Positions 2,110 through 22,074 of a DNA stretch of 22,074 nucleotides are shown piece by piece. This stretch comes from a virus (lineage: Duplodnaviria; Heunggongvirae; Uroviricota; Caudoviricetes), in the IMG/VR virus record IMGVR_UViG_643348545_000012; one strand, written 5' to 3'. A model generated the notes under the pieces. The model saw nothing but the letters and a program-made list of their open reading frames with translations, ran no database searches and had not been told where the DNA came from. The position numbers and the translations under genes were made by a program. Within the stretch, counting starts at the first letter, position 1. Every line of letters starts with the position of its first letter.

Positions 2110-2119
2110 AGATATCCTT

Positions 2120-5983: not shown

Positions 5984-6070
5984 GCTGAAAAACATAACCC
6001 ATAAAATGCTAGCTGTACCAGGAACCACCTCCTTAGCCTGTGTAATCTCCCTTACACGGGCTTATTTTTT
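5984..6070 (+). ncRNA. cyaR: CyaR (RyeE) Hfq-dependent small RNA, 87 nt, with Rho-independent terminator
   Basis: Sequence gctgaaaaacataacccataaaatgctagctgtaccaggaaccacctccttagcctgtgtaatctcccttacacgggcttatttttt matches the CyaR sequence as I recall it; 3' hairpin (gcctgtgtaa / ttacacgggc) followed by a T-run. Confidence 0.8.
6044..6070. repeat. P2-type attachment core (27 bp, aatctcccttacacgggcttatttttt), left prophage junction; overlaps the cyaR terminator
   Basis: Exact 27-bp direct repeat with 21402-21428; reverse complement equals the P2 att core sequence as I recall it. Confidence 0.75.
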
Positions 6071-6134
6071 ACGCGTAATACAATGAAATAAAAGGATTTA
6101 TTTCTGGTCACGTCCACACATTGACCACATCGAC

Positions 6135-6158
6135 AAAAAAGCCCCTCGACTGAGGGGC
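6135..6158 (-). terminator. Rho-independent terminator downstream of ogr (hairpin GCCCCTC-gact-GAGGGGC with T-run on the minus strand)
   Basis: Perfect 7-bp stem at 6141-6158; aaaaaa at 6135-6140 gives a U-tract on the minus strand directly after the stem. Confidence 0.6.
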
Positions 6159-6171
6159 TTTCTGTTTGTAA

Positions 6172-6390
6172 TTACATCCACATAATTTGCTGCCCTGACG
6201 GCAACGGGTGCGGCCTTACGGCGTGGACTTCTCCCGGCTTCACGATGTATCTCTGTACCGACTCATAAGTGATGAACGTGGCGCTGCAATTCACGTTCTG
6301 GCACTGGTGATAACGCTCTTTTGTCGTGTCAGTGATATAGCGGCTTGTACGCGCATGTGCGGCATGCTGGCATAAAGGACAATGAAACAT
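6172..6390 (-). CDS. ogr: Ogr-type zinc-finger late-gene transcriptional activator (72 aa)
   Basis: Internal Met of the 99-aa ORF gives MFHCPLCQHAAHARTSRYITDTTKERYHQCQNVNCSATF..., a C-x2-C...C-x4-C zinc finger matching P2 Ogr / E. coli OgrK. Confidence 0.9.
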   Translation of the reverse strand: MFHCPLCQHAAHARTSRYITDTTKERYHQCQNVNCSATFITYESVQRYIVKPGEVHAVRPHPLPSGQQIMWM

Positions 6391-6470
6391 CGCGAGCACC
6401 TCTTCCGGTTTTGTTAATGGTGCCATTTTATTTAATTTATCCTTATAAAACAAACAGATAAAACAAAACA

Positions 6471-7634
6471 TTAATCATCATCTTCTGTTTCGTACTCCAC
6501 ATCAGAAAGCCTGACCTCAAGCTCTAAGGACGTCGTGAAGCCGCTATTATTCAGAAAATGTGTCACCTTAGTGATTGTCCAGTCCTGCTCGTCTATGACG
6601 CGCTTAAAGCCTGACACTCTGACCGGTGTTTCCGTGTAAATATCAGCACGACCAGTGGCAAGGCTGATGGAGAACTCCGCAACGCCCCGTTGCAGTTTAT
6701 CCCACTTCGCCTGAGCGGCGCGCATGGCCTGCGCTTTCGTGGCATATACCGTGGTCAGGGCAAAAACGTTGTCAGCTTCACCGGCCATGTATTCACCTTC
6801 GCGCGCTTCCGGTACTTTTGGCGCTTTCTTCTGCGTGACTGGTTTCGCTTTCGGGTGCTCCAGTGCGCGCAGGTGTTTCTCTTTCTTTTTGCGTTTCAGT
6901 TTTACCTTCTGCTTTTGCGGCTTCGGGTCTTTGGTGTGTAACCACTTTGCCGTTACGCCGGTATAGGCTCCACGGTCAGCAATCGCAAAATGATGGCGGT
7001 CGCCGTCGCTGCGGGTTATGGTGACCTGCGGGATTTTTTTACCGCTGGCCGTCACCCCCTGCCCCGCTTTGAGAAACAACAGTTTTCCCATTTTTACCGA
7101 CACCTCACCGCCGTTGCGTTCTGCAAGACGGGTCAGGAATTTCGCATCAGACTCCTGCGACTGGTCGATGTGCGGGATTTTAATTCCGGCCAGTGACGGC
7201 GCGACACTGGCTTCCAGCCTGTTACGGGAGGCTATCGCCTCAACAATCGCACCGAGCGTGGTGTCATGCCATGACCCTTCACGGCGGGAATTGAGCGTCC
7301 CGCGAAAATCTGCACTCCGGGCGCGGATGGTGACCACATCCGGTGCGCCCCGGTGTTCAACCTCATCAACGGTAAATTTCCCTTTGCATACCAGGGCAAA
7401 ACCTTTCCAGCCGATATACACCTTCAGAACAGCACCACGAACCGGCAGTTCGACCTGCCCGTCGGCATCGTTCAGTTCAATATCAAGCTGGTCAGCCTCA
7501 AAGCCCCGGTTATCCGTCAGGGTCATGCTCATCAGACGGTCGCTGATATTGCCGGTAATATCCCTGCTGTCGAGCATCAGCATGTAATCCGGCGTCAGCG
7601 TACTGCCTGCATCAAATGTCAGCGCATCCAGCAT
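6471..7634 (-). CDS. D: P2-like tail protein D (late control gene D product)
   Basis: 387 aa ORF, same length and gene order as P2 gpD (immediately upstream of ogr). Confidence 0.9.
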   Translation of the reverse strand: MLDALTFDAGSTLTPDYMLMLDSRDITGNISDRLMSMTLTDNRGFEADQLDIELNDADGQVELPVRGAVLKVYIGWKGFALVCKGKFTVDEVEHRGAPDVVTIRARSADFRGTLNSRREGSWHDTTLGAIVEAIASRNRLEASVAPSLAGIKIPHIDQSQESDAKFLTRLAERNGGEVSVKMGKLLFLKAGQGVTASGKKIPQVTITRSDGDRHHFAIADRGAYTGVTAKWLHTKDPKPQKQKVKLKRKKKEKHLRALEHPKAKPVTQKKAPKVPEAREGEYMAGEADNVFALTTVYATKAQAMRAAQAKWDKLQRGVAEFSISLATGRADIYTETPVRVSGFKRVIDEQDWTITKVTHFLNNSGFTTSLELEVRLSDVEYETEDDD

Positions 7635-8113
7635 TATCCCGCCCCCGTCATACCCGTGAATCTGGTCGCCACACTGCCAGCCTTACCGATGAGCGATTCC
7701 GCCTGTTTACCGATATCGCCATAAAGCGCGGCCAGTGATTCATCCACGCGGGTGAGCGACAGCGTAAAATCAATTTTCCGGGGTGTGCCGTCTGCAAAGA
7801 AAATACTCCCTGTTTCACTCACCCTGCTGATGACATACATGCCGTAAATCATGCCGGTGCCATCCAGCAACGGCCACGCCCGGCCTTCCTCTGCCATCAG
7901 CCTGAGCGTGGTCATCGTCAGCTTCCCGCCGGTCAGTTCGGGATAAAGCACGCCGGCAAGCGTCATGTTTTCCTCACCCACACCGAGAAACTGAAAGGCA
8001 TCCCGTTTACCGATACGGGAATTTGACGGCCAGCGATAATCTGATTCACGCTGCATGGTCTGGTGTGGCAGCGTCTGGCGCATAAAAACAAACATACCTA
8101 ACGCGAGCATCAT
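7634..8113 (-). CDS. U: P2-like tail protein U
   Basis: 159 aa ORF; position between T and D; stop overlaps the D start (coupled). Confidence 0.88.
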   Translation of the reverse strand: MMLALGMFVFMRQTLPHQTMQRESDYRWPSNSRIGKRDAFQFLGVGEENMTLAGVLYPELTGGKLTMTTLRLMAEEGRAWPLLDGTGMIYGMYVISRVSETGSIFFADGTPRKIDFTLSLTRVDESLAALYGDIGKQAESLIGKAGSVATRFTGMTGAG

Positions 8114-8127
8114 TTTTCGTCACCTCC

Positions 8128-10575
8128 TTAACCGTCATGCATCATGCTGGCACGGGCACGCGCACGTTTATCCCGCTCGTATTTTTCGAGCGCATCCTGT
8201 AACTGGCGGTCAAGCTGTGTCCCCGGCGCAGTACCACCCGTCAGGCTGATGTGATATTCGTTTTTACTCTGGTCCACATAAGAGCGGCCAGCCAGTGCCG
8301 TGACTGGCTGATAAGCCTGATAGCCTGCATAAGAGCTGGTCGCCGGAATATAACCACCGGTGCCATACGTGGCGGCATGAGTTCTGGCGGCGGTCTGGTC
8401 AAGTGTGTCTGACTCTTTGTTGATGACCCCGAGCTTTTCCAGTACCCAGGCAATACCGCTGCGCAGTTTGTTGAACGCATTAAGCGGCAGCATCAGCGCG
8501 TCAGCCAGTGCCTGCCCGAACATGACACCCGTGTCACGGCAACGGTTCAGGGTGTCCTGGGTGGCTTTGACCGGGGCAATCAGGTTTTTAAACCACTGCC
8601 ACGCGGCCTGTAACTTTTCGCCCAGCCAGTCAAACACCGGCTTAAGTGGCATGAACAGTTCCCCCACCGGCGCAAATGCCGCTTTCAGCCCTTCCACCAC
8701 ACCGCCAAAGAATGCGCTGACAGGCTCCCAGTATTTACGGATAAGCAACGCCCCGGCGACAATGGCGGCCACCACGGCCACAACCGGCCAGCTAATCGCC
8801 CCGATGGCCGTCATAACAGCACTGCCAACCGTCGTGAAGATTGCCCCCATTGCGCCTGCTGCCGCGATAATGGCATTGATGCCGGTGATAACCGGCCAGG
8901 CTACAAGACCAATGGCACCGATGATGCCAGTCAGCGCCAGTGCGCCACCGGCAATGAGGCCGGTGGTTGACGCCAGTGATTTGTTTTTCTGGATCCAGCC
9001 GTCGAGTTTTAGCACATACTTTGTGGCTGTCTGCGTGAGATTACGCAGTGCGCCTTCCTGCTGGTCAAACAGGTCAGTCCCCACCGCCTCATAAGCGGAC
9101 TGAAACTCCTTAAAGTCACCGCCGAGGTTGTCCTGCATGATATTTACCAGCTCGGCGGTCTTCCCGTCTGAGGCTTTAAACGCAGCGGTCAGTTTGTCCA
9201 GCTTTCCGGTTGAGGCGGCAGTCATCAGCACGGCGGCGGCTGAGCTGGCCTCTTCCCCGAAAATAGTTTTCATGTATTCAGCCTGCTGGGCAGTACCGAG
9301 CCGGTTTTTCTCAAAACTGGCCTGCATTTCTTTCAGAATGGTAAATACTGGTCGGGTGTTTCCCTTGCTGTCTGAGGTTTTCACACCAAGCTCTTTCAGT
9401 GCATCCCACGCTTTTCCCGTCGGTGCCTGCAGGCGGCTTAACACGGCACGGCTTCCCGTCCCCGCCATTGAGCCTGTGATTTTTGCATCATGCAGCGCCC
9501 CGACCATTGCGGCGGTTTCTTCAATGCTGACACCGGCATTTTTTGCCACAGGTGCGGCATAGGTCAGCGCATCGCTCATGCCGTCAAAATCGGCGGCGGT
9601 TTTGTTCATCGTCATGGAGAGAACATCCCCGATATGAGCGACCTTATCGTTTGAAAGCTGAAAGGCGGATTTCATCCCCATCAGCAGGGCGGCGTTTTCT
9701 TCCATCGTGCGACGGTTCGCCAGCGCCATATTCAGCGTGACCGGCGTTGCCGCCTGAATGGCATCAACATCCCCACCGGCTTTTGCAATGATAATCTGCG
9801 CACCGGCTGCATCATCCGCCGAGGCGGCGGTGTTGTCGCCGAGCTGGCGCGCCTGTTTGCGGAGCGCGGCCATTTCGGCGGAGTCTTTTGCCACGCCGAG
9901 CACAGCCTGTAATTCTGAGTTTTTCTGCGCAAACTCATAACCGGGCATCAGCAGCTTAACTCCGGCCATCGTTCCCGCCGCCGCAATCCCCACACCGGCA
10001 GCGCCCACTGAGGCCATATTTCCGGCCAGTTCCTTTCCGGCCTGATAACGCTGTTTGACTGCGTTAAGTTTTGCCTGTTGCGCGCTGACACGCGCCAGCG
10101 CGTCACGCTGCCGGTTAAGCTGCGCGGTGGTTTCACTGATACGGTTTTTCAGCCCCTGCTCATCATGTGCAAGATTGCGGGTATTAATTCCCACAGCAGC
10201 CAGTTCCCGCTGCTGGCGTTTAACGGAATCCGTCAGGCGGTTATATTTCGCCTGTAAGTCCTCCGCCGCTCGCTTTGCGGATTCCAGCACTTTCGCCTGA
10301 GCACGGGTCGGACGTTCGGTATTTTTAAACTGTGTGGCAAGGGCTTCGGCTTCCAGCCGTGCCTTCTCAAGTGCATGACCAGTCACGGCGAGCTGTGCGC
10401 TGGTCTTGCGAAATCCCTCAATACGGGATGCGTGACCGTTCAGCTCGCGCAGTGATTTTTGTGTGTCCCGGATATCCCCCGACAGCGACTTGCTCGCTGT
10501 ACGGATGGATTTAAACGGGCGGGATGCCTGGTCAACAGCCCTGAGCAATACCTGTAATTTTACATTGTTACTCAT
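8128..10575 (-). CDS. T: Tail tape-measure protein (P2 gpT-like)
   Basis: 815 aa ORF with coiled-coil-rich N-terminus and Gly/Ala-rich hydrophobic central segment, typical of tape-measure proteins; lies directly downstream of E/E'. Confidence 0.92.
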   Translation of the reverse strand: MSNNVKLQVLLRAVDQASRPFKSIRTASKSLSGDIRDTQKSLRELNGHASRIEGFRKTSAQLAVTGHALEKARLEAEALATQFKNTERPTRAQAKVLESAKRAAEDLQAKYNRLTDSVKRQQRELAAVGINTRNLAHDEQGLKNRISETTAQLNRQRDALARVSAQQAKLNAVKQRYQAGKELAGNMASVGAAGVGIAAAGTMAGVKLLMPGYEFAQKNSELQAVLGVAKDSAEMAALRKQARQLGDNTAASADDAAGAQIIIAKAGGDVDAIQAATPVTLNMALANRRTMEENAALLMGMKSAFQLSNDKVAHIGDVLSMTMNKTAADFDGMSDALTYAAPVAKNAGVSIEETAAMVGALHDAKITGSMAGTGSRAVLSRLQAPTGKAWDALKELGVKTSDSKGNTRPVFTILKEMQASFEKNRLGTAQQAEYMKTIFGEEASSAAAVLMTAASTGKLDKLTAAFKASDGKTAELVNIMQDNLGGDFKEFQSAYEAVGTDLFDQQEGALRNLTQTATKYVLKLDGWIQKNKSLASTTGLIAGGALALTGIIGAIGLVAWPVITGINAIIAAAGAMGAIFTTVGSAVMTAIGAISWPVVAVVAAIVAGALLIRKYWEPVSAFFGGVVEGLKAAFAPVGELFMPLKPVFDWLGEKLQAAWQWFKNLIAPVKATQDTLNRCRDTGVMFGQALADALMLPLNAFNKLRSGIAWVLEKLGVINKESDTLDQTAARTHAATYGTGGYIPATSSYAGYQAYQPVTALAGRSYVDQSKNEYHISLTGGTAPGTQLDRQLQDALEKYERDKRARARASMMHDG

Positions 10576-10995
10576 TCGTGTTTCCGCTTCGCCGGAGCGC
10601 CTTTTCGCGCCATGTGATGAGTTCGGTCAGGCTCATGGGATACAGTTCTGATGGCGGCCAGTGAAATATCACTGCCACATCCGCCATCAGGTCATCGACC
10701 GACAGATTTTTCGGAAACGTCACTGCACCGAGTTCGGCGACAAAAAACCGACCACCTTACCGGCCAGCGCCACAAGGTCAGGCAGTTCCAGCGCGGCGAC
10801 TTCCTGCTCGGTCAGCATCGGTGCCGTCATGCGCGGCAGCACCTTAATCAGTGCATCGACTTCGGAGTTTGCAACCGCAGCCAGACTGACACCGCGCAGC
10901 GTCCCGGCATTGGGTTTCATCAGCGTGACCTGTTCGATAACCTGCTCACCACGTTTGACCGGATTTTCCAGGGTAATGACATTTTCTTTGTTCAT
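10568..10995 (-). CDS. E': E+E' fusion produced by programmed -1 ribosomal frameshift at T_TTT_TTG (reverse complement of 10741-10747); E' extension ends at TAA 10568-10570, overlapping the T start
   Basis: Slippery heptamer read directly; the -1 frame is open from the slip site to 10568 and encodes ...FFVAELGAVTFPKNLSVDDLMADVAVIFHWPPSELYPMSLTELITWREKALRRSGNTNE; frame arithmetic is consistent with a -1 shift; matches the known P2 E/E' mechanism. Confidence 0.7.
10720..10995 (-). CDS. E: Tail assembly chaperone E (P2 gpE-like), 91 aa
   Basis: ORF MNKENVITLENPVKRGEQ...GFLSPNSVQ; position between FII and T; contains slippery heptamer near its 3' end. Confidence 0.88.
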   Translation of the reverse strand: MNKENVITLENPVKRGEQVIEQVTLMKPNAGTLRGVSLAAVANSEVDALIKVLPRMTAPMLTEQEVAALELPDLVALAGKVVGFLSPNSVQ

Positions 10996-11051
10996 GGTTT
11001 TCTCACTTCTGAATCAGGGTTAACCGGTCAGCCTGGCTGACCGTATGAAAA

Positions 11052-11570
11052 TCACAGGCCGATATTTCGGCGGTGTTGCTCCAGCCGGTCGACGCCGTTC
11101 ACCTTCTCAATCATGTTGATGGTGTCGATTTCGACCAGCTCCTTACCGTCCATCGTCAGCCGGAAATAAGTACAAATCACCGGGAGTTTCGATTCGGTAT
11201 CCTCTCCCTGTTTACCCTCTCCGGTGTCGACTTCTTTCTGACGCCCACGCATGACCACTTCGACGGCCACCGTTTCGCCGGTATCGTCGCGCTGGTAAGA
11301 ACCAGCAAAACGAATCGGTACGGCATCAGCACTGGTTGCAGCGTAAAGCTCCCAGATAACCGAATCCGGGAAACCCCCGAGCGACCACTCCATTGACAGC
11401 GCATCGTCATCAAGGCCGAGGTCTACCGGTGCGCTGCCGTTCATCCCCGCACCGCGATAATTTTCGAGCTTACGGGTCAGTTTTGGCAGCGTGACGGACG
11501 TTGCAACGCCCTGATAGCTGTAGCCGTTCAGAAAGACATTCATGTATTTGAGTTTGCGCGGCATTGCCAT
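11052..11570 (-). CDS. FII: Major tail tube protein (P2 gpFII-like)
   Basis: 172 aa ORF, gene order sheath-tube-E-T as in P2. Confidence 0.9.
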   Translation of the reverse strand: MAMPRKLKYMNVFLNGYSYQGVATSVTLPKLTRKLENYRGAGMNGSAPVDLGLDDDALSMEWSLGGFPDSVIWELYAATSADAVPIRFAGSYQRDDTGETVAVEVVMRGRQKEVDTGEGKQGEDTESKLPVICTYFRLTMDGKELVEIDTINMIEKVNGVDRLEQHRRNIGL

Positions 11571-11582
11571 CGGTCAGGCTCC

Positions 11583-12773
11583 TTAATTGCTGTTAACCGA
11601 GGTGACCAGATTTGCCAGGTATTTATCGGTAATACGCTGGCGCAGGGTCAGGTTTTCGAGAGGAGGCACCGGGGTATAGTCGTAGTCGATATACAGTTTT
11701 CCGGCCTTGAGGGTTTCCGCATCGTTGGATTCTTCGCTGAACCAGCAGGTCGCATCCACGATATAGCCGTTTGTTTTCAGCTCTCGGAATTTGGCATTGA
11801 TGCCGTCAACGATGTCGCGAATCAGCGTTGCGGTGATGGGCTTGTCCACCGCCCACATGTGCGCCTCAGCCATCGTGTCGGCCAGCACCTGCGCGGTGCG
11901 GGTGTAGTTTTCAAAGAGGAACAGCGGGTCATCAGAGCAGGTACGGTTACCCCAGAAGCGGAAACCGTCACGGCGAATCAGCGTTGTGACGCCTGACTCG
12001 TTAAGCAGGTCAGCATCGGTGCCGGACTCCTGCAAATCCCAGAATACGGACGCGCTGATGCCGGTAACACCGTTTACCCCGACGTTGGACAGCGTTTTAT
12101 GCCAGCCCTGCTCCTGGTCGATTTTAGCGCGCAGACCCAGCGCACGGGCGGTGGCATACGCGGTGGCGGTGGTACTGGTGACCGTATCCCATGCGAGGAA
12201 ATCCGGCCAGATGACCATCAGCTCACGCTGGCTGAAATTCTGGCGGTAGGCTTTCACCTCGGAAATGGTCTTACAGCCCCATGCGCTGATATATCCGAAA
12301 GCGCGCAGCTTCTGACAGACGGATGCCAGTGCAACAGCCACCTCTTTGGTATCCAGTCCCGGCACACCGAGAATACGCGGTTTAACACCGGTTACCGACT
12401 CCGCCGCCAGCAGGGCTTTTAGTCCGGTGTACTGACCGTTTTCGTCGGTGGTGCCGATGATATTGGAAACGGTCTGCGCGAGTTTCGTTTCCTCGTCATC
12501 ACCGGTGCCGTCTTCCACGCGCACGACAACGGTGACCGGTTTTGACTGGTCAGCGATGGCCTGCAACGATGCCGCCAGCGTGCCTTTTTTACCGGCCTTT
12601 GCAATTGCGCTTTGCACATTGGTAATCAGCACCGGTTTATTGAGGGGGAAGGTTTCCGCATCCGCATCGCTGGCCGTGCAGACCATGCCGACAATGGCAG
12701 TGGATACGGTGGAAATGACGCGGGTGCCGTCGTTAATCTCCAGCACCTGCACGCCATGATGATAGTCACTCAT
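11583..12773 (-). CDS. FI: Tail sheath protein (P2 gpFI-like)
   Basis: 396 aa ORF beginning MSDYHHGVQVLEINDG, same length and position as P2 gpFI. Confidence 0.92.
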   Translation of the reverse strand: MSDYHHGVQVLEINDGTRVISTVSTAIVGMVCTASDADAETFPLNKPVLITNVQSAIAKAGKKGTLAASLQAIADQSKPVTVVVRVEDGTGDDEETKLAQTVSNIIGTTDENGQYTGLKALLAAESVTGVKPRILGVPGLDTKEVAVALASVCQKLRAFGYISAWGCKTISEVKAYRQNFSQRELMVIWPDFLAWDTVTSTTATAYATARALGLRAKIDQEQGWHKTLSNVGVNGVTGISASVFWDLQESGTDADLLNESGVTTLIRRDGFRFWGNRTCSDDPLFLFENYTRTAQVLADTMAEAHMWAVDKPITATLIRDIVDGINAKFRELKTNGYIVDATCWFSEESNDAETLKAGKLYIDYDYTPVPPLENLTLRQRITDKYLANLVTSVNSN

Positions 12774-12869
12774 CCGTTTAACTCCGTGGTTAATGGGTGC
12801 AACTATTTTCTGTTGGGCAGTGCATGAGACGCTATTTGACCTGACTGGTCAGTGGATGAAACAACAGAT

Positions 12870-12898
12870 AAAGAAAAGGCGGGCAATTCGCCCGCCTG
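12870..12898 (-). terminator. Rho-independent terminator (hairpin GGCGGGC-aattc-GCCCGCC followed on the minus strand by TTTTCTTTAT), separating the cargo module from the FI late operon
   Basis: Perfect GC-rich 7-bp stem at 12880-12898 with T-rich tract on the minus strand. Confidence 0.55.
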
Positions 12899-12952
12899 TC
12901 CTGATTTGTACTCACTCATTTTCCGCCTGACAATTTACATAGCCCAAATGCT

Positions 12953-12975
12953 ATCAAATCTGACAGTCTGCTTTG
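12953..12975. repeat. Site A: atcaaatctgacagtctgctttg, copy 1 of a ~22-bp putative recombination site
   Basis: Shares the exact 11-mer ctgacagtctg plus flanks with sites at 15262-15284 (direct, 21/23) and 15384-15405 (inverted). Confidence 0.6.
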
Positions 12976-13103
12976 AGCGAAAAGTGGACATTAGAGTTAC
13001 AAAAGCAAGTTTAAATCATCCAAAATATTACAATGTCCTTATCTATCTGATATCGTTATAATAAAAAGCTCCTGAATATAATCGATAGTAGGTGGTTATT
13101 TCC

Positions 13104-13481
13104 ATGAAATCAATTTTAGAGGTTTTTACTCAAGGAAATACTAAAGAAAAACTGGCTGTTATCGCCGATCTCACAACCATTGCGGGAATATCGATTGCAA
13201 CTATTATTGCTGGTTTGTTAACCCTAGTTGCAAAAACAGATAAACTAGATGTTGGAAATCTGTTTGGAGTTGTCATAATATCTCTGCTCGGATTGGCTGG
13301 TGTTTGCTGTTTTGTGGCCTTATTTATTTGGGTTATAACCCAAATGTCTAAACCATGGGGAACACCTCGGGGGGTTCAGCCCTTAGTTAAGTGTGCTATT
13401 TCCCTTATCTTTATCTGTATGTTTTTGCTGGCTGTCTTTACATTTTATGAGTTTATTTCTTCGATGAGCATACGCTATTGA
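13104..13481 (+). CDS. Small integral membrane protein (about 125 aa, 3 predicted TM helices), cargo gene
   Basis: ORF in track (13092..13481, likely ATG at 13104 with aggtgg RBS); three long hydrophobic stretches; AT-rich. Confidence 0.55.
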   Translation: MKSILEVFTQGNTKEKLAVIADLTTIAGISIATIIAGLLTLVAKTDKLDVGNLFGVVIISLLGLAGVCCFVALFIWVITQMSKPWGTPRGVQPLVKCAISLIFICMFLLAVFTFYEFISSMSIRY

Positions 13482-13503
13482 ATATAAAATCAGCCCCCAT
13501 AAC

Positions 13504-14088
13504 TTAAAAGAGACCTTCTATATCGACTTCAATGCCCAAATAACGGACTGTGCTTTCCAGTTTCTTATGGCCCAACAGAAGTTGGATCACCCGGAGACTC
13601 TTGGTTTTCTTGTAGATTAAGTAAGGTTTTGTTCTTCTCATGGAATGTGTGCTGTACAGCGAATCTTCGAGACCAAGCTTTTCTACCCACCCATGAAAAA
13701 TTCGGTTGTATTGCCGGGTTGATATATGGTGGTTAGTTCCGACCCGAGAGCGGAACAGGAAGCCTTTACTATGCCAGTTGCCGAGCTTTATCAATGCAGT
13801 AACCGCTTCCCTTGTCCCTTTGGTTATCTCAAATTGGACAGGGCTGCCGGTTTTCTGTTGCAACACCGTTGCTCTGCTTGAGACAGAACTGCCATATGCA
13901 GCATCTGATACTTTGAGTTTGACCAAATCACAGCCCCGTAGCTTAGTGTCCAAAGCCATGTTGAACAGAGCTAGATCGCGTGTTTTACCTTCCAACTCAA
14001 GTCTAATCCGGATCCCCCAGATATGAGATATCTGAAGTGGCCTTTTTTGACCGATGGTACGGTCTTTATTCCACGGTGACGTTTTCAT
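13504..14088 (-). CDS. Short tyrosine recombinase (FimB/FimE-sized, about 194 aa)
   Basis: C-terminus HSMRRT...LLGHKKLESTVRYLGIEVD carries the box II H-x-x-R, second His and nucleophile Tyr; earlier TKLRGCDL supplies a candidate box I Arg. The track ORF starts at 14190, but the ATG at 14088 has an AGGAG RBS 8 nt upstream and gives a protein the size of FimB/FimE. Confidence 0.75.
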   Translation of the reverse strand: MKTSPWNKDRTIGQKRPLQISHIWGIRIRLELEGKTRDLALFNMALDTKLRGCDLVKLKVSDAAYGSSVSSRATVLQQKTGSPVQFEITKGTREAVTALIKLGNWHSKGFLFRSRVGTNHHISTRQYNRIFHGWVEKLGLEDSLYSTHSMRRTKPYLIYKKTKSLRVIQLLLGHKKLESTVRYLGIEVDIEGLF

Positions 14089-14194
14089 ATTCAAATCTCC
14101 TGCAATGTGGGAGATTTGAGTATGGTTGTCTCTCAAGAGCGAAAATAAGTCAACTATCACTAGTTGTTGCGCATGTACGTATTCTGTCAATTAA

Positions 14195-15037
14195 TTATTG
14201 ACAATCATCAATTCTGGAATGATCAAAATCATCATATCGAATTATAGTCTGGTTGACTGTATCTATTGTTGGTGTCATTTCTGTTATAATATCCTGATAA
14301 CCTAAAGAGTTAAATACATTTACTAAGGCCTCACACCGAAGGGCCGTAGCAATTACAAAATTATAAATTGCCAGCCGTTTATTTTCTTGTTTAACTGCAA
14401 GAATGAATTCGATAGCAGTATTTTCATCACTTTGGATTGCATTATATAGAGATACTATATTTACCATATCATCAGAGAATGTATGTATTGAATCACAAAG
14501 GGGAACGTAATGGGCATGATAGTGTGTTTCCCAGCCAATTAATTCAAAAAGTTTTCTGGTTCCTGGATATTCAGGTGTATTTGGCCACAATCTATTAAAT
14601 AGATCAGTTAGTTCTTTTCCCATGCGAATCCTTTCATTTGCTGCTGGATTAGTCATTCCTTTGGATTTTAAACACTCCAGCCACCGTTTTCCATTACTAT
14701 GAACTAATTTCTTACTAGCCTTGAGTAATGCTTGTGCATTTTCGCCATCATCTATTGCTATATAAAATTGATTGGCAGCCTGTTCTATTATAACCCTAGC
14801 TAATACTTCCGATGCTGAAAAGGCTCCTATATTCAAAGAAGAGATAGCCTGATTACTAAGTTCATTCAGTACATTAAAGTACTGTAAGACCATCAATTTT
14901 TGTTCCACACCCTTTAGGTTGTCTATTTTATTTTTATGCTCCTCAAATTTTGCATGGATATATTTATTTATCGCGGCTATTTTTTTTACATCTTCGTCAA
15001 GATCAAACGGGCAACGTCCAAACAATTCTTTTTTCAT
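14195..15037 (-). CDS. Hypothetical cytoplasmic protein (280 aa), cargo gene upstream of the recombinase
   Basis: ORF with AGGAG RBS 7 nt upstream of ATG; AT-rich; no recognisable motif (no RT YxDD, no clear nuclease or HEPN motif). Confidence 0.6.
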   Translation of the reverse strand: MKKELFGRCPFDLDEDVKKIAAINKYIHAKFEEHKNKIDNLKGVEQKLMVLQYFNVLNELSNQAISSLNIGAFSASEVLARVIIEQAANQFYIAIDDGENAQALLKASKKLVHSNGKRWLECLKSKGMTNPAANERIRMGKELTDLFNRLWPNTPEYPGTRKLFELIGWETHYHAHYVPLCDSIHTFSDDMVNIVSLYNAIQSDENTAIEFILAVKQENKRLAIYNFVIATALRCEALVNVFNSLGYQDIITEMTPTIDTVNQTIIRYDDFDHSRIDDCQ

Positions 15038-15075
15038 ATATTTCTCCTGTTGTACAAGCTTCCATAAGTTGGCAG

Positions 15076-15110
15076 ATTATACACTGAAGATTACCTATAA
15101 ATAGCTGTGC
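15076..15110 (-). promoter_or_regulatory. Candidate sigma70 promoter for the 280-aa cargo gene (perfect TATAAT on the minus strand at 15081-15076; weak -35)
   Basis: Reverse complement of attata at 15076-15081, about 38 nt upstream of the ATG at 15037; -35 element poor, so speculative. Confidence 0.3.
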
Positions 15111-15261
15111 GGGATAGCAGATCAGTGCAAGAAGTACAACCAAGTGAATGTGCGTATTCAGATACCTGGCCTAACGTTCGCGATAGCCGTCCCCTGCACG
15201 AAGCCATATATTAGATGTATTAGCTCAGACCTTATCTGACAGGTTGAGTAGGTAGAATCTA

Positions 15262-15284
15262 ATCAAAGCTGACAGTCTGGTTTG
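15262..15284. repeat. Site B: atcaaagctgacagtctggtttg, direct copy of site A
   Basis: 21 of 23 positions identical to site A; read directly. Confidence 0.6.
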
Positions 15285-15383
15285 GACTGTGAGTTCAACC
15301 GATGGATGCAACACACAGCGATCTACGGACATTACTAGCATAGCTGTGTATTAATCATCGGGAAGCAGGTCAGTCCGCTCCTA

Positions 15384-15405
15384 GCACAGAGCAGACTGTC
15401 AGATT
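15384..15405. repeat. Site C: inverted copy of the site (reverse complement aatctgacagtctgctctgtgc); also part of a 10-bp-stem hairpin tagcacagag...ctctgtgcta (15382-15423)
   Basis: Reverse complement matches site A at 20 of 22 positions; lies 47 bp downstream of the G stop codon. Confidence 0.6.
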
Positions 15406-15457
15406 AGGCTTTACTCTGTGCTATAGATACGTTAGCTCACTCCAGAGATCATACAAC

Positions 15458-15985
15458 TTATTGCGGCATTTCCGGCCATTCAGGATTTGCAGGATCCACA
15501 CGGCTGACCAGAACACTGTAGCGTTCCCATGCTTCCAGTCGGCTACGCTCCTCATCTGTTGCCATATTCAGTCTGACAGAGCGTTCCAGTGGCTGAATGA
15601 TAGTTTCAGCTTCGGAAAGCAAAGCTGACTTCTGTAATTCCGCCAGTTGCAGCTGTTCGTCTGCCGTATAAATCCGCTTAATCACGGCACCATCCTTAAA
15701 CATCCATTTACCTGAGTCATCAGCACGTCGGTTGGCGGTAATATCAGGAACCTCGACAACGCTAAAACCTTCAGGGTTGAGCGTTGAAGCATCTCTGGTG
15801 ATGCCGACAATTATATTATTCTCATCGTAAACAATCTTTATCGTGTCTTCCTGAAAATTACTTACTTCCTCATACCAGTTTTTTCCCTCTTCGGACCATA
15901 ACCAGATAACATCAAAATTTTTTGTCAGTTGATATTGGGCAACAGTTTTTGGATTACCCGCAGTAATATTTTTTAAATGCTGCAT
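15458..15985 (-). CDS. G: Tail fiber assembly chaperone (P2 gpG-like)
   Basis: 175 aa ORF immediately downstream of the tail fiber gene; same length as P2 gpG; Tfa-like sequence. Confidence 0.88.
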
Positions 15986-15988
15986 AAA

Positions 15989-18094
15989 TTACACCTGTGC
16001 GACGTTATACCATGTGCCATTGATGTATTTTTGTATTGGTCTGAATACTGCGGGGTCATCACCATCGACTTCACCGACAATACCAAGCCCGGTAATTACG
16101 TGCCCTGCTTTCTCATACATCACCCCTTTCTGCATGGTCTGGACAACACGTGTGCCAAGTCTGACATCTCTCACATAGCGGGAATCAAAGTTACCGTAAT
16201 CCGAGGGATTAACACGCCCCGTAATATTTATGGTTTTATTACTTTGAACGCTTCCGGAGACAAAGCGCATAACATGGACGCTATTAGCATAAACATCCAG
16301 ATTACCATCACCATTTTGTTTAAAGCCCGTGTCATTATCACCCAAAACAATCGAATTACCGCCAAGAGCACTGGATGTTCCTATACCCAGAGCACCATTC
16401 AATTGACCACCAGATAATGATAACGCCCCAACATCAGCAGCAGTCGGTTTAATGTACGAACTGTAAATTACATATACAGTTCCATCTGTCAGGCCTGTTG
16501 GTTTATTCGCTGTATAAGTTGGTGATGTATGAATCGTTACGCTGGCGTTACTGGTATAATCCCACTGAATATTAACACCTGTGGCGTAATTACCTATTTC
16601 AACATAAACATCATAGGTATCACCGGATGTATTCACCCATGCAAAATTAGTAAATCCAACCGATGTCCGTCGCCATAACGCACCAGTAAGACCTTTTGGA
16701 TTTCCATTTCCCGCACGAAGAACAAGTTCAGATATACCAGCCTGCATAGGGGAGTTAACATTATATCCGGCACCACCAATCAGGCTTATGTAAACCACGG
16801 AACTGGCCTGGGGCATGGTTACAGTTGCCAGCCTGAACCATCCTGTACCACCACTAAAAGACATGGTTGTTGAATTTGTTGCTCCAATATTGCGCAGGAA
16901 TAATCTTTTATCAGGAATATCCGCACCGTTCTGATCTTTCTGAAGACGTTTTTCAGCATTGTCATAGGCAGACTTCACCGCTTTTGGTGTTGCGGCCAGT
17001 GTTTCAGAATCACTGTTGGTGGCGCTACTGAGCTGAACAAGCCCTTTTCGCGCTGTGGTGGCATCCTGTGCAGTGTATTTCCCGTTAGCAAGGTCATACG
17101 CGACCTTTACCGCCTTTGGCGTTGCCGCAAGCGTTTCAGAATCACTGTTGGTGGCGCTACTGAGCTGGACAAGGCCTTTTCTCGCTGTGGTGGCGTCCTG
17201 TGCAGTGTATTTCCCGTTAGCAAGGTCATACGCGACCTTTACCGCCTTTGGCGTTGCGGCCAGCGTTTCAGAATCGCTGTTGGTGGCGCTACTGAGCTGA
17301 ACAAGACCTTTTCGCGCTGTGGTGGCGTCCTGTGCAGTGTATTTCCCGTTAGCAAGGTCATACGCGGCCTTTACCGCTTTTGGTGTTGCGGCGAGCGTTT
17401 CAGACGTGCTGTTGGTGGCACTACTGAGTTGGACAAGACCTTTTCGCGCTGTGGTGGCATCCTGCGCAGTATATTTCCCGTTAGCAAGGTCATACGCGGC
17501 CTTTACCGCTTTCGGCGTTGCAGCCAGTGTTTCAGACGCGCTGTTGGTTGCACTGCTTAACTGAGTAAAACCTTTTGCGGTCAGCGAGGCGTCCGGGTGA
17601 CGTCGTGACTGTTCATGCTCTGCAATTTTGTCATCAACGTAATCCTGCGTTGCCATCACCGTTGTGGTGTCAATGGTCAGCTCCACTGAGGCCACACTGC
17701 TGACGATGATGACCATGCGGCAGGTCTGCGAACGCCCTGAGCCTTCGGCAAGAGCGGGTTTATAACTTTCAGCCATGTTCGCCACGGCAATTAGCGTTCC
17801 CGCATCATCGTACAGGCCAAGCTCACGCATCCAGAAACCGCCCACCTCCGGCGGAATAACCAGCTCTGCGATAATATAATTACTGTTTCGTTTGTCCAGG
17901 GTGATTTTGTTCAGCGCATGTCGCCAGACTTCATGGATAAGCCCGGTCTGTCCGGCATCCGGGACAGGCAATTTACCACCGCCATCCCCGACGGCCATCG
18001 TGGTAATGTTGACCTTCCGCCCTCCCGGTGCGGTTGCCGCTGCCAGCTTTGCTGCACCGGCAGTGGTGATAACGGTTTTGAATTTTGTGCTCAT
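15989..18094 (-). CDS. H: Tail fiber protein (P2 gpH-like) with internal 44-aa tandem repeats
   Basis: 701 aa ORF; N-terminus MSTKFKTVITTAGAAKLAAATAPGG resembles the conserved fiber N-terminal baseplate-attachment region; C-terminal half divergent. Confidence 0.92.
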   Translation of the reverse strand: MSTKFKTVITTAGAAKLAAATAPGGRKVNITTMAVGDGGGKLPVPDAGQTGLIHEVWRHALNKITLDKRNSNYIIAELVIPPEVGGFWMRELGLYDDAGTLIAVANMAESYKPALAEGSGRSQTCRMVIIVSSVASVELTIDTTTVMATQDYVDDKIAEHEQSRRHPDASLTAKGFTQLSSATNSASETLAATPKAVKAAYDLANGKYTAQDATTARKGLVQLSSATNSTSETLAATPKAVKAAYDLANGKYTAQDATTARKGLVQLSSATNSDSETLAATPKAVKVAYDLANGKYTAQDATTARKGLVQLSSATNSDSETLAATPKAVKVAYDLANGKYTAQDATTARKGLVQLSSATNSDSETLAATPKAVKSAYDNAEKRLQKDQNGADIPDKRLFLRNIGATNSTTMSFSGGTGWFRLATVTMPQASSVVYISLIGGAGYNVNSPMQAGISELVLRAGNGNPKGLTGALWRRTSVGFTNFAWVNTSGDTYDVYVEIGNYATGVNIQWDYTSNASVTIHTSPTYTANKPTGLTDGTVYVIYSSYIKPTAADVGALSLSGGQLNGALGIGTSSALGGNSIVLGDNDTGFKQNGDGNLDVYANSVHVMRFVSGSVQSNKTINITGRVNPSDYGNFDSRYVRDVRLGTRVVQTMQKGVMYEKAGHVITGLGIVGEVDGDDPAVFRPIQKYINGTWYNVAQV
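16961..17572. repeat. Tandem repeat, 132-bp unit, about 4.6 copies, encoding the 44-aa motif SETLAATPKAVKxAYDLANGKYTAQDATTARKGLVQLSSATNSx inside the tail fiber gene
   Basis: Near-identical DNA units begin at about 16978, 17110, 17242, 17374, 17506; also visible as duplicated antisense ORFs 17055-17300 and 17319-17564 in the track. Confidence 0.9.
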
Positions 18095-18104
18095 TATTCC
18101 TCAC

Positions 18105-18635
18105 TTATCCGGGGTAAACCGTAATTACATCGCCGTCGTAAGCCACACCACCGGCGAACAGGTAGCCGGGAATGTCCCGGGTAATGTTCAGGCCAATAAG
18201 GTGACGGCTTGCAGGTTTGGCATCAGCAATCAGCCGTTCCATTTCCTGATACATTGCCTCTGTGATACCGCTTTCCAGTACACCAATATCAAGCCGGAAG
18301 GTGCCGGGCGGGTCACTGTTTTCCCACCACTCCGTCACGTTGATGAGATAGCCGAGCGGCTCCACCACACGCCGGATTGCACCTATCGTGCCCTTATGAC
18401 AGTGGATGAAATAGGCATCGCGGATAACGGCGCGTTTTGTCGCTTCCGGCCACTTTTCATCCCATCTGTCGACCGAAAACGCCCACGCCAGCCACGGCAG
18501 CAGATTTGCCGGACAGGTATTCGGGTTCCACAGATCACGAATACTGACCGGCGTTTTTTCAATTTCCGCACAGGCTTTTGCGGCGGCAACTTCAAGCGGT
18601 GATGAGCCGGTCGGCAGCAGTCGCGAATCACTCAT
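18105..18635 (-). CDS. I: Baseplate assembly protein I (P2 gpI-like)
   Basis: 176 aa ORF, position between J and H. Confidence 0.9.
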   Translation of the reverse strand: MSDSRLLPTGSSPLEVAAAKACAEIEKTPVSIRDLWNPNTCPANLLPWLAWAFSVDRWDEKWPEATKRAVIRDAYFIHCHKGTIGAIRRVVEPLGYLINVTEWWENSDPPGTFRLDIGVLESGITEAMYQEMERLIADAKPASRHLIGLNITRDIPGYLFAGGVAYDGDVITVYPG

Positions 18636-19536
18636 CCGAGCCTCCGGTCACGACGTGGTATTCGGTACAGAAAGACGCCTGCGTACTGTTGAGCACGATA
18701 TCGACCAGTGGTGCAGCCAGTTCGACACGCTGCACGCCTTCCACATGCAAAGCGGCATAAATGGCAGACAGACGGATGTCGCGCCCCAGCCGGTGCTGTG
18801 CCGTGATGTACGCTTCCAGTTTTTTCACGGCAGCAGCGCGGATGGGTTCGCTTTCGGGACCAGGGTAAAGGTAAAGCGTGGCGTTTATCTGGTATTCAAC
18901 GATGGCGGCAGACTGCACGGTCACGCGGTCGGCCACCGGCCTGACGTCCTCGCCATTAAGGGCGTTACGCACCACCGCCAGCAGGTCTTCGGATGCGACA
19001 CCGTTATTTTCACGTGACAGCACAGAGATGGTGACGCAGGCCGGAGACGGACTGGTGACAGAGATATCCGCGACACGCCCGTCGGCACTGCGACCATGAT
19101 ACTGATAAGCCCCCACCGACCCGGCGACGCTTAAACCTTCAAACGCCTGCTGAATACGCAGACGATAATCCGTGTCAGATTCCATCACGGCCGGTGTCGG
19201 CGGGAGGGTCGAATCATCTGCCGGGGTGATAGTCAGACGCGTGGTGTTGTAATTGGCACCAATCACATCAAGGTCATTACCGGCGGCACAGGCCAGCATT
19301 ACCGCCCGTGCGGCCTCATTCACACGCTGACGCCAGATAAGCTCACGATAAGCATTTTCCTCCAGCAGTTTGACGAGAGGCTCGGATTCCAGCATCAGGG
19401 CACGGGCGACCGCCTCCTGCTGGTCTTCCGGGTAAAGGGAAATCAGTGTCGCCTTGCGTTCAGCAAGAATGGTTTCAAAGTCCAGCTCCTCGACCACATC
19501 CGGTGCGGGTAGCTGGTTCAGGTCGATAATCGGCAT
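18628..19536 (-). CDS. J: Baseplate assembly protein J (P2 gpJ-like)
   Basis: 302 aa ORF, overlaps I start by 8 nt, gene order W-J-I. Confidence 0.92.
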   Translation of the reverse strand: MPIIDLNQLPAPDVVEELDFETILAERKATLISLYPEDQQEAVARALMLESEPLVKLLEENAYRELIWRQRVNEAARAVMLACAAGNDLDVIGANYNTTRLTITPADDSTLPPTPAVMESDTDYRLRIQQAFEGLSVAGSVGAYQYHGRSADGRVADISVTSPSPACVTISVLSRENNGVASEDLLAVVRNALNGEDVRPVADRVTVQSAAIVEYQINATLYLYPGPESEPIRAAAVKKLEAYITAQHRLGRDIRLSAIYAALHVEGVQRVELAAPLVDIVLNSTQASFCTEYHVVTGGSDE

Positions 19537-19540
19537 GGTT

Positions 19541-19888
19541 TCAACTCACAGGGATGGTTAACGAAAGTGGCTGGCCGGTGTCGTTGTGCTGGCCGGTTAA
19601 CGTGACCGTCATTCGCCCGTCAAAACTGCGCGCCGTGGTGACGGATGACAGGGTGACGCGGGGTTCCCATTTCAGCACTGCCATGTAACAGGCGACTTTA
19701 ATCTGCAACTCAAGCGCCGGGGTCTGCGGCTGGTCAATCATTGACGCCAGCAACGAGCCGTAATCACGACGCATCACCCGTGAGCCGACCGGTGTGCGCA
19801 GGATATCGCCGATACTCTGGCTGATATGCTCAAGGTCAGTGACAGTCAGGCCATCACTGCGATTCATTCCGAGATAACGCGCTGTCAT
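19541..19888 (-). CDS. W: Baseplate protein W (gp25/GPW family)
   Basis: 115 aa ORF beginning MTARYLGMNRSDG; start overlaps V stop (ATGA). Confidence 0.9.
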   Translation of the reverse strand: MTARYLGMNRSDGLTVTDLEHISQSIGDILRTPVGSRVMRRDYGSLLASMIDQPQTPALELQIKVACYMAVLKWEPRVTLSSVTTARSFDGRMTVTLTGQHNDTGQPLSLTIPVS

Positions 19889-20520
19889 AGAGGTCCCCCT
19901 GTTGTGCCGCCACTGTCGCCGGGGTGTTTATGGGTATGCAGTACCTTACCGTTTGATGAGAGTTCACCGCCGGTGTGTTCAATGTTGCCGCGCATCGTCC
20001 CGCCCTTCTGCACTTCCAGCGTGCCGGTAATCAGCCTGTTGGTGCAGACCACCTCCGGTGTGTCCAGGGTGACGCGGGTTGATGCTTTCACCATGACCAC
20101 CGGCACCGTGGCAGTAACAGAATCAGAAGCCGTCACGCTGGCCGTTTTAATTCCGCTTACCGTAAGTGCACTGGTTTCGGGTTCATACTCAATCACCACC
20201 CCGTCAGGGAAACGGATATGCAGGGCATCCGCCGACGCAGACGGCGCGGGGTTATCGCCGGAATAAATTCCCGGCAGAACGAATGCCGTGTCGAGTTCAC
20301 CGCCCACGGACAGAATCAGCACCTGTTCCCCCACGGAAGGTGCCCACCATGTGCGCGAACGACCGGCGCGATGGGTCAGCCACTGAAGCCAGTCGGTGCA
20401 CATGCCGCCGGTCTGCACGCGGCAGCGACCGGCGTTAAGGTCGGTTTCGACGATAATGCCGGTGCGAATCATGTTGCGCAGTGCGCGCGCGAGTTCCTGA
20501 ATATTTGCGAGAGTGTTCAT
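19885..20520 (-). CDS. V: Baseplate spike/assembly protein V (P2 gpV-like), 211 aa
   Basis: Track ORF begins at a TTG at 20538; the ATG at 20520 gives MNTLANIQELARALRN, which I take as the P2 gpV N-terminus. Confidence 0.9.
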   Translation of the reverse strand: MNTLANIQELARALRNMIRTGIIVETDLNAGRCRVQTGGMCTDWLQWLTHRAGRSRTWWAPSVGEQVLILSVGGELDTAFVLPGIYSGDNPAPSASADALHIRFPDGVVIEYEPETSALTVSGIKTASVTASDSVTATVPVVMVKASTRVTLDTPEVVCTNRLITGTLEVQKGGTMRGNIEHTGGELSSNGKVLHTHKHPGDSGGTTGGPL

Positions 20521-20603
20521 GCATGTGAGATTGCACAATATATAAAAGTTATGCTATCTGGATTCATTTGTAGAACTACCAGACAACATTCAAGGAGAGC
20601 GTA

Positions 20604-21317
20604 ATGGTCAGCTATAATGTGACTAATGTGTGGGGGCTAATCGTTTTTTTCCTTTGTAGCTTTGCAGTATTAGCATTTTTTAGCTTTGGTAAAAGTAACC
20701 TTATGAGGCTTATTGCACATTATTTCAATTTTGGATATTCAGACAAAAAATTAAAAAGACTTGACCGCGAGTGGCGCGACATTCAACTATTTAAAATAAT
20801 TAATGGAATCAATGTATCAGGCATTGAAAATGTGAGAATGATACAGCAGGGACTGATTGATGGAAAACTAAAAACATCGTATTTTTCCCTTACTCGCATC
20901 TGGGGTGACATAACAAAACCACCACACATAATTAAAACAATAATTGTAATTCTGGCCAGTATTTTTTACATTCTCCTCGCATGTTACATACACAACGAAC
21001 AATCCGTTATAGTAAGGGATGCCATAGGCATACCATATAAAAACATGATGTACTATGTTTATAGTGACAAAGTTCTTTTATCCTTCAAAAATAAAGCAGT
21101 TGAATTTAATAAAACTTATAGCCTTGCCGATTGCAAGAGACTGCAAAACGTATTTATAAAAGACACACTTCCTGAGATCGCCTGCAATAAGCTCTTACAG
21201 CTAAACGAGGAGGACTCCGAATGGTTAAGCCAGGAGATTAAAGATAATAACAGTCACAAAAAAGCATTATTAATACTATCCCTGAAGCCGAGAGTGTCCA
21301 CACAGTGTCCACAGTAG
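20604..21317 (+). CDS. Hypothetical AT-rich membrane protein (237 aa, two hydrophobic segments), divergent from V; prophage cargo
   Basis: ORF with AGGAG RBS 6 nt upstream of ATG; very AT-rich relative to adjacent tail genes; TM-like segments VWGLIVFFLCSFAVLAFFSF and IIKTIIVILASIFYILLACYI. Confidence 0.55.
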   Translation: MVSYNVTNVWGLIVFFLCSFAVLAFFSFGKSNLMRLIAHYFNFGYSDKKLKRLDREWRDIQLFKIINGINVSGIENVRMIQQGLIDGKLKTSYFSLTRIWGDITKPPHIIKTIIVILASIFYILLACYIHNEQSVIVRDAIGIPYKNMMYYVYSDKVLLSFKNKAVEFNKTYSLADCKRLQNVFIKDTLPEIACNKLLQLNEEDSEWLSQEIKDNNSHKKALLILSLKPRVSTQCPQ

Positions 21318-21401
21318 AGTAACGTTTAAGGGCTTTCAGTGGTAATTTATGCCGCTCAAACCCGCATTGTACCGTTGAAAGCCCCTACTGGTGACACCCT
21401 A

Positions 21402-21428
21402 AATCTCCCTTACACGGGCTTATTTTTT
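21402..21428. repeat. Second copy of the 27-bp P2-type att core (right prophage junction)
   Basis: Exact direct repeat of 6044-6070; followed by a hairpin gggcttat...ataagccc. Confidence 0.7.
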
Positions 21429-21756
21429 ATGCATAAGCCCTATCCCTGGTCACCGTCTTCCATTGACCACATCGATAGAATACTCCTTCATAGCACGATG
21501 CCTTTCACTTATCGACATCGTGCTCCCACAGGTTCCGGCTACGCACAGCCAGAACGCGCATGTTTGACGCTTACCAAAAAATGAACCTAAAGCATTGGAA
21601 TATTTTTGACATCATTTTCTGATGGCTGCATAAAATAAAAATTCTGCTTTAGTTTCATCTATCTGTTTGTCATTATTACTCACATTCAATAATGGTGTTG
21701 AAGAATATCCCATCACAGATAAAATAAATATGTGCATGGTAGTCTTGAATCTATTC

Positions 21757-22074
21757 TCACTCTCCACATTTGAATGTCAGACGAGCGACGCCATGTAATC
21801 CTGCACCTTCTGTCTTCAGGTCAACTATCTGCATTTTTTTGCCCTGAGTAACACAGAAATGAGTTGCATCATTTTTTACTATATTTTCTGCACCAGATAT
21901 TCTACCCCTGGCTAAAGAAGCTTCGGCTTCGGTGTAGTATTGGTTATCCAGTTTACGCTGAATATTACTTTTATATGCAAGGCCAAATTTACCGATACTT
22001 GTCTCATCATTATGCACAGCACAACCAGACATAAGAAAAACACTAATTAATGATATAGCAGCTATCTTTTTCAC
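21757..22074 (-). CDS. yegR: Small lipoprotein (signal peptide ending LMSGC), YegR-like; probable GTG start at the window edge, so the N-terminus could be truncated by the window
   Basis: 105 aa ORF with lipobox; matches my recollection that yegR (105 aa) follows the ogrK remnant in E. coli K-12; symbol assigned with moderate certainty. Confidence 0.55.
   Translation of the reverse strand: MKKIAAISLISVFLMSGCAVHNDETSIGKFGLAYKSNIQRKLDNQYYTEAEASLARGRISGAENIVKNDATHFCVTQGKKMQIVDLKTEGAGLHGVARLTFKCGE

Follow-up and report, generated by a model that had tools for sequence, protein, structure and literature searches.

Some small inner-membrane proteins of phages and prophages, such as gp15 of HK97, Imm of T4, and SieA of P22, act in superinfection exclusion; HK97 gp15 is, as orf30 of bacteriophage P2, the product of a moron located among tail genes, and with respect to Orf30 these proteins would be functional analogues only. 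In the P2 record, orf30 (positions 9439-10224, complement) encodes a protein of 261 aa (NP_046770, PHROG 2407) labelled 'Orf30; nonessential', and the gene is placed between S and V, divergently from V; a putative terminator is annotated between S and the 3' end of orf30. Like orf30, the P2 loci old, tin, and fun(Z) are nonessential, variable, and transcribed against the flanking phage operons; their targets according to the P2 record are lambda, T-even phages, and T5, whereas none is given for Orf30. The orf30 locus is, together with the TO and Z regions, one of three sites of horizontally acquired genes in P2-like phages (PMC3091744), and in phage R18C a different ORF is found at this locus (PMC6823313). 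A functional study of orf30 was not found in the literature and two large studies of P2 hotspots and defence do not mention the gene, which after about 30 years is the only P2 accessory locus without an assigned function.

The DNA analysed here, hereafter the window, is a stretch of 22,074 nucleotides from a Caudoviricetes virus record and contains on its + strand an ORF of 237 aa that starts with ATG (20604-21317). With a probability of about 0.88, this ORF is a 3'-truncated copy of P2 orf30 lying in its native slot in a defective P2 prophage that has undergone an 18.6-kb deletion; its identity as a truncated P2 orf30 within a deleted prophage is essentially certain, and no finding speaks against it. 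In particular, codons 1-227 encode a sequence identical to P2 Orf30 in 225 of 227 residues, the differences being F95S and T141I, and the nucleotide identity with P2 is 97.5% over a BLAST block ending at P2 9545. When the full-length E. coli allele was compared with phage genomes by tblastn, P2 'orf30: Orf30' was retrieved at 99.6%, and the same allele matches phrog_2407 with an E value of 5.5e-149. A megablast search of the segment 20400-22074 against 5,426 complete E. coli genomes returned many P2-like prophages at 99.8%, with alignments ending at 21283; in an intact prophage (L001) a 261-aa hypothetical protein is encoded in the same place, between V and S. The earlier note had held that nothing in the sequence identifies the function of the gene; the gene itself is identified by these matches, and orf30 is a long known, annotated P2 accessory gene and not a new one.

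The immediate surroundings of the ORF correspond to those of P2. An AAGGAG ribosome binding site (RBS) at 20592-20597 is located six bases ahead of the ATG, and the GC content of the ORF is 0.356 versus 0.594 for gene V, from which it is divergently oriented, in agreement with the earlier description of an AT-rich 237-aa ORF provided with a strong RBS and divergent from V. The idea that 20604-21317 is merely a chance open frame has a practically negligible probability, considering that 237 stop-free codons are expected by chance at this composition with p ~1.7e-8, that dN/dS is well below 1, and that homologues of the same architecture occur in seven genera; it is refuted by conservation. Gene V, which encodes the baseplate spike (211 aa) and is the first gene of the P2 late operon V-W-J-I-H-G, spans 19885-20520 on the - strand, is collinear with P2 10308-10943, and in the E. 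coli records that match bears the annotation 'phage baseplate assembly protein V'. Its start is the ATG at 20520, which matches P2 10308, the TTG at 20538 given in the ORF list being a mere extension.

The 83 bp between the two genes (20521-20603), defined by mapping the P2 annotation via an ungapped BLAST alignment, are the noncoding V/orf30 intergenic region; the feature originally delimited as 20521-21317 is thus coding only from 20604 onwards. The annotated Ogr (activator) site of the late promoter pV maps to window positions ~20562-20589 and lies, in P2 coordinates, 15-42 nt upstream of the orf30 ATG, so that any orf30 promoter would have to overlap pV. A promoter scan of 20521-20603 did not detect a sigma-70 consensus promoter for orf30, and late activation of the gene driven by the Ogr site is unlikely.

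The V side of the V-S slot is intact in the window while the S side is deleted; the collinear sequences of L001 and P2 show the order S-orf30-V. BLAST of the whole window against P2 identifies blocks, the first of which (window 6044-12988, P2 24382 to 17433) comprises the att core, ogr, D, U, T, E, FII, and FI, the second (window 15373-21283, P2 15358 to 9545) comprises G, H, I, J, W, and V together with the initial 680 nt of orf30, and the third (window 21282-21429, P2 24502 to 24355, 99.3% identity) comprises the last 41 nt of int, the P' arm, the Cox sites, and the att core. The junction, at window 21282-21283 with a 2-bp microhomology (CT), joins P2 9545, within orf30, to P2 24502, 41 nt before the end of int, as the outcome of a single internal deletion of 18,635 bp that removed int, C, cox, B, A, tin, old, cos, the genes from Q to S, and the 3' end of orf30, including the stretch in which the putative terminator is annotated.

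The P2-derived part of the ORF (20604-21283, + strand, codons 1 to ~227) encodes the N-terminus, the first transmembrane segment (TM1), the predicted cytoplasmic loop, TM2, the predicted periplasmic loop, where Cys177 and Cys194 are located, and the beginning of TM3. Both orf30 and int are on the P2 minus strand, and beyond the junction the ORF proceeds along the sense strand of the int 3' end, out of frame, for ten codons (KPRVSTQCPQ) followed by TAG (21284-21317, + strand, with the stop at 21315-21317); the int stop, TAA at 21320-21322, lies in another frame. This foreign tail is an accident of the deletion. A base-by-base comparison of the junction sequences and the alignment with two full-length alleles show that the last 34 residues have been swapped for these 10. 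The 237-aa product, which had been taken for a natural protein, consists therefore of residues 1-227 of the 261-aa Orf30 with an appendage derived from int. The earlier note also placed the gene where the rest of the phage genome was lost or replaced; on the contrary, it occupies its native position and the deletion begins inside its own 3' end. Since the sequence is native P2 right up to the junction, acquisition of the gene at the site of the deletion can be discarded.

Downstream of the junction, what is left of the 3' end of int, which reaches 21322, and the P' arm with the Cox-binding part of attP cover 21284-21401, as deduced from the P2 feature table and the 99.3% identity to P2 24355-24502. 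They are followed, on the yegR side, by a perfect 27-bp P2 att core (21402-21428, an exact match to the reverse complement of P2 24356-24382), and a second perfect 27-bp core, recognised by sequence match, is found on the yegQ/ogr side (6044-6070). The previous placement of the ORF beside the att core of a prophage deprived of most of its genome is therefore correct, the remnant between the two cores (6044-21428) measuring 15,385 bp. Its flanks are yegQ (trhP) and yegR (21757-22074, - strand, so named in the E. coli records that match) of a B2-like E. coli, with 99.9% identity to S88 and ATCC 11775, in which the record coordinates place ~32-36 kb between yegQ/trhP and yegR. The same junction is absent from the 5,426 complete E. 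coli genomes, and an exact search of the junction in the GTDB representative genomes gave 0 matches; the deletion is therefore strain-specific and probably recent.

The remnant retains the whole V-to-D tail cluster and ogr and is devoid of X, R, S, and of the lysis, head, replication, immunity, and int genes. With this gene content, it is unable to excise via its own Int or to build complete tails. The loss of X, R, S, and the lysis genes likewise makes a functional tailocin unlikely. The Z/fun hotspot, between FI and G (window 12989-15372), harbours non-P2 cargo consisting of a 129-aa ORF (13092-13481, + strand), a tyrosine-recombinase-family protein of 228 aa (13504-14190, - strand), and a DUF5677 protein of 280 aa (14195-15037, - strand), and none of these three genes matches a PADLOC model. 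The tail-fibre gene H (15989-18094, - strand) contains at 16961-17576 an in-frame tandem repeat of 132 nt in 4.7 copies with 90% matches, in a region that is a single stretch in P2 (13252-13459); H of the window encodes 701 aa versus the 2,010 nt (~669 aa) of P2. Upstream of yegQ/trhP, positions 1-4050 carry DUF4034, PcfJ-domain, and DUF1266 genes according to the annotation of matching genomes, and the 6.1-kb left flank is present over at least 80% of its length in only 298 of the 5,426 genomes, which qualifies it as a variable island.

With regard to its distribution, orf30 is a nonessential AT-rich moron that is variable and does not belong to the P2 core. The earlier note had proposed a synteny check in related P2-like prophages to see whether the gene is a variable moron: in Wphi, 186, and PsP3 the slot is empty, S and V being 66-70 bp apart with nothing between them, and the adjacency of S and V in related phages has likewise been stated (PMC2771037). 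Among the 5,426 complete E. coli genomes, orf30 is found in 464 and a P2-type V in 1,574. The GC content of orf30 is 0.34-0.36 versus 0.59-0.60 for V; the same contrast is shown by the Serratia, Yersinia, and Pectobacterium versions, and all versions of the family have 33-36% GC irrespective of the host.

A word-indexed search for homologues returned five clusters, and even an exhaustive profile search of 1.84 billion representatives gave only 44 clusters, defined at 50% identity. The named members are all 'hypothetical protein' entries of Enterobacterales, belonging to Escherichia, Enterobacter, Serratia, Pectobacterium, Yersinia, Cronobacter, and Sodalis, and all 28 of the 28 aligned members match phrog_2407, whose function is unknown. 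At 8 of the 9 loci with readable flanks, a P2-like prophage harbours the gene in its V-S slot, with transcription directed away from V; these loci are from E. coli, Serratia ureilytica, a Serratia rubidaea remnant, Yersinia, Pectobacterium, Cronobacter, Sodalis, and a metagenomic contig. At a tenth locus, from Enterobacter, the contig breaks off within the gene on one side, and the readable side shows no P2 genes. The sole non-P2 context is an AT-rich islet between rplS and aroF (L017, 2530-4777), in which the homologue adjoins a defence-associated gene for a 215-aa CAP12/PCTIR TIR-domain protein.

Several loci have peculiarities of their own. In Pectobacterium (L009, 5800-7440), an ORF6N-domain gene and two small ORFs are interposed between the homologue and S, and in Cronobacter (L014, 2965-3899) two extra genes, one of which encodes a DUF7480 protein, lie between V and the homologue. 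The E. coli strain ETEC4088 (L002, 3400-5630) has a decayed P2 remnant at yegR that keeps V, a full-length orf30, and a fragment of S, and the S. rubidaea remnant (L005, 4200-7100) has retained ogr, V, the orf30 homologue, and a 49-aa S fragment; the two remnants decayed independently and both retain the orf30-family gene.

The family is thus small, fast-evolving, and almost confined to the V-S slot of P2-like prophages. Orf30 homologues are only 21-23% identical, versus 63-83% for V, 67-78% for J, and 57-79% for R. Between E. coli orf30 alleles dN/dS is 0.35-0.41, with values of 0.15-0.22 in the two loops and ~1.2 in the N-terminus/TM1, where there are very few sites; orf30 is therefore under purifying selection, yet it diverges far faster than its neighbours. 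The almost exclusive occupation of a single P2-like slot, next to the late promoter pV, together with a 5' region that abuts the annotated Ogr-binding site, could indicate an accessory of the lytic cycle, involved in lysis timing, in the maturation of tail or baseplate at the membrane, or in the interplay with P4. This possibility appears improbable because the gene is annotated as nonessential and is absent from the viable relatives Wphi and 186, runs against the late operons on either side, and has the AT-rich foreign composition typical of morons; moreover, the lone Ogr site, 15-42 nt from the ATG, would be too close for an activator site at -55 of a transcript carrying the start codon.

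The architecture of the intact protein is conserved across the family and comprises three TM segments, which in full-length Orf30 are residues 9-27, 109-127, and 221-239. The product encoded in the window has the first two, both strongly hydrophobic; the earlier notion of a two-TM protein is right for this product and does not apply to native Orf30, whose TM3 has been cut off. No charged residues precede TM1, loop 1 (~29-108) has a KR:DE ratio of 14:7, loop 2 (~132-220) of 13:13, and the C-tail of 4:1. On the basis of this charge distribution and of the positive-inside rule, the predicted topology is N-out/C-in, with loop 1 in the cytoplasm and loop 2 in the periplasm. The motifs best conserved in the family (Q61, G68, D76, and G87) are in loop 1. 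Loop 2 is probably disulfide-bonded; C194 is invariant and C177 is conserved in all but three members, which have a Cys two or three positions earlier. In the AlphaFold2 model (pLDDT 72), loop 1 contains helices, and loop 2 combines helices with a sheet of four to five strands.

Compared with P2 Orf30, the window copy shares position and orientation next to V, the RBS, the intergenic region, and the AT-rich composition; it differs in ending at residue 227 with 10 unrelated residues and in being deprived of TM3, of the C-tail, of the downstream terminator, and of S. The missing C-tail is conserved and basic and bears the nearly invariant K254 along with other conserved positions. Since TM3 and this tail are lost, the allele of the window, a rare clipped form, is most likely impaired or inactive; among E. 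coli genomes with orf30, 461 of 464 hold at least 80% of the gene. A partial activity might persist, since export of the periplasmic loop behind TM2 would not be prevented.

The opposite interpretation, namely that the 237-aa two-TM form is itself functional in exclusion or abortive infection and has been maintained at the border of a decayed prophage, could appeal to a promoter region and an RBS that are intact along with 87% of the coding sequence, and to the ETEC4088 and S. rubidaea remnants that likewise retain the gene. Little credit can be given to it: the form is without TM3 and the C-tail with K254, the gene is full length in nearly all E. coli copies (461/464), and the ten new residues are out-of-frame int sequence; in addition, a junction unique with respect to 5,426 genomes indicates a recent event that has not passed the test of selection, and no homology to defence proteins was found. 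What the window contains is hence a known P2 accessory gene clipped by a strain-specific deletion in a decaying prophage, a finding that in itself matters little. The comparative picture of the intact gene, made up of three TM segments, a putative disulfide-bonded domain in the periplasm, strict linkage to the V-S slot in at least seven genera, purifying selection combined with very fast divergence, and a remote link to DUF6216, is useful for surveys of prophage-encoded exclusion genes.

As for the role of intact Orf30, it may tentatively be proposed that it is an inner-membrane protein expressed by the prophage that disturbs the infection of other phages at the membrane. The prophage would express Orf30 in the inner membrane, in the N-out/C-in orientation and with a disulfide-bonded periplasmic domain; there it would act against other phages, whose genome would be denied entry or whose infection would be aborted; and P2 would possess, in addition to old, tin, and fun(Z), a fourth exclusion gene of the lysogenic-conversion type. 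A somewhat more doubtful extension of this proposal regards PHROG 2407 as an unrecognised family of exclusion or abortive-infection factors in which the cytoplasmic loop would act as a sensor and the periplasmic domain would contact a phage or envelope partner, the copy of the window being dead. An exclusion role is suggested by the moron nature of the gene and by the company of old, tin, and fun(Z), which all exclude heterologous phages, as well as by fast divergence under purifying selection and the strict tie to one phage lineage; the TIR neighbour in the lone non-phage context adds a weak hint.

Arguments against such a role are that PADLOC, PHROGs, Pfam, and NCBIfam contain no exclusion or defence protein similar to Orf30, that the fold searches were uninformative, that its gene has no upstream sigma-70 consensus promoter, and that two large studies of P2 hotspots and defence leave the gene unmentioned. 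A simple entry blocker seems to fit less well, given that the best conserved loop is the putative cytoplasmic one and not the periplasmic one. Moreover, exclusion of P2 itself is disfavoured by the ability of P2 vir mutants to form plaques on P2 lysogens. A classical lysogenic conversion, in which Orf30 would alter a trait of the host envelope unrelated to phages (stress, colicin or serum resistance, colonisation), would accord with a predicted inner-membrane protein with a periplasmic disulfide domain encoded on a prophage and with the missing link to known defence families. It is nevertheless a poor candidate, as the very fast divergence and the strict P2-like linkage suggest a phage-related partner over a conserved host target, and no similarity to characterised envelope proteins was found.

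The structure and HMM searches recommended in the earlier note established the membership in PHROG 2407 and gave no functional lead from sequence or fold. Full-length Orf30 had no usable match in Pfam, NCBIfam, and PADLOC, and in particular no family of PADLOC-DB 2.0 at E<=10; the PADLOC search with the 28 members gave only three isolated single-member matches, with E of at least 0.0067. A profile search of PDB sequences found nothing, and the fold search with the whole protein and with the periplasmic domain returned no informative match. The exception is Pfam DUF6216 (PF19723), to which the Sodalis member P0031 scores 28.9 bits versus a gathering threshold of 27.3 over profile positions 10-265 of 270, with weak matches in 10 of the 28 members; P2 Orf30 itself does not match this profile even at E<=10, and a homologue search seeded with P0031 retrieved only P0031. 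The relationship between PHROG 2407 and DUF6216 would therefore be remote and indirect. DUF6216 is reportedly mentioned once in a bioRxiv preprint of 2026 that deals with the silencing of antiviral loci by H-NS.

Among the known systems, the proteins of DUF6216 (uncharacterised integral membrane proteins of ~270 aa) have in common with Orf30 the length and the membrane character; DUF6216 is without known function, so that this link gives Orf30 a name and no mechanism. The described exclusion and Sie families represented in PADLOC, PHROGs, Pfam, and NCBIfam have no similarity to Orf30, and none of sequence, profile, or fold was found with proteins of the type of HK97 gp15, T4 Imm, and P22 SieA. 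With respect to these, Orf30 is of larger size, and its three TM segments are accompanied by two soluble domains. In comparison with old, tin, and fun(Z) and with the defence cargo of the P2 hotspots, Orf30 is distinguished by being a membrane protein that matches no PADLOC model.
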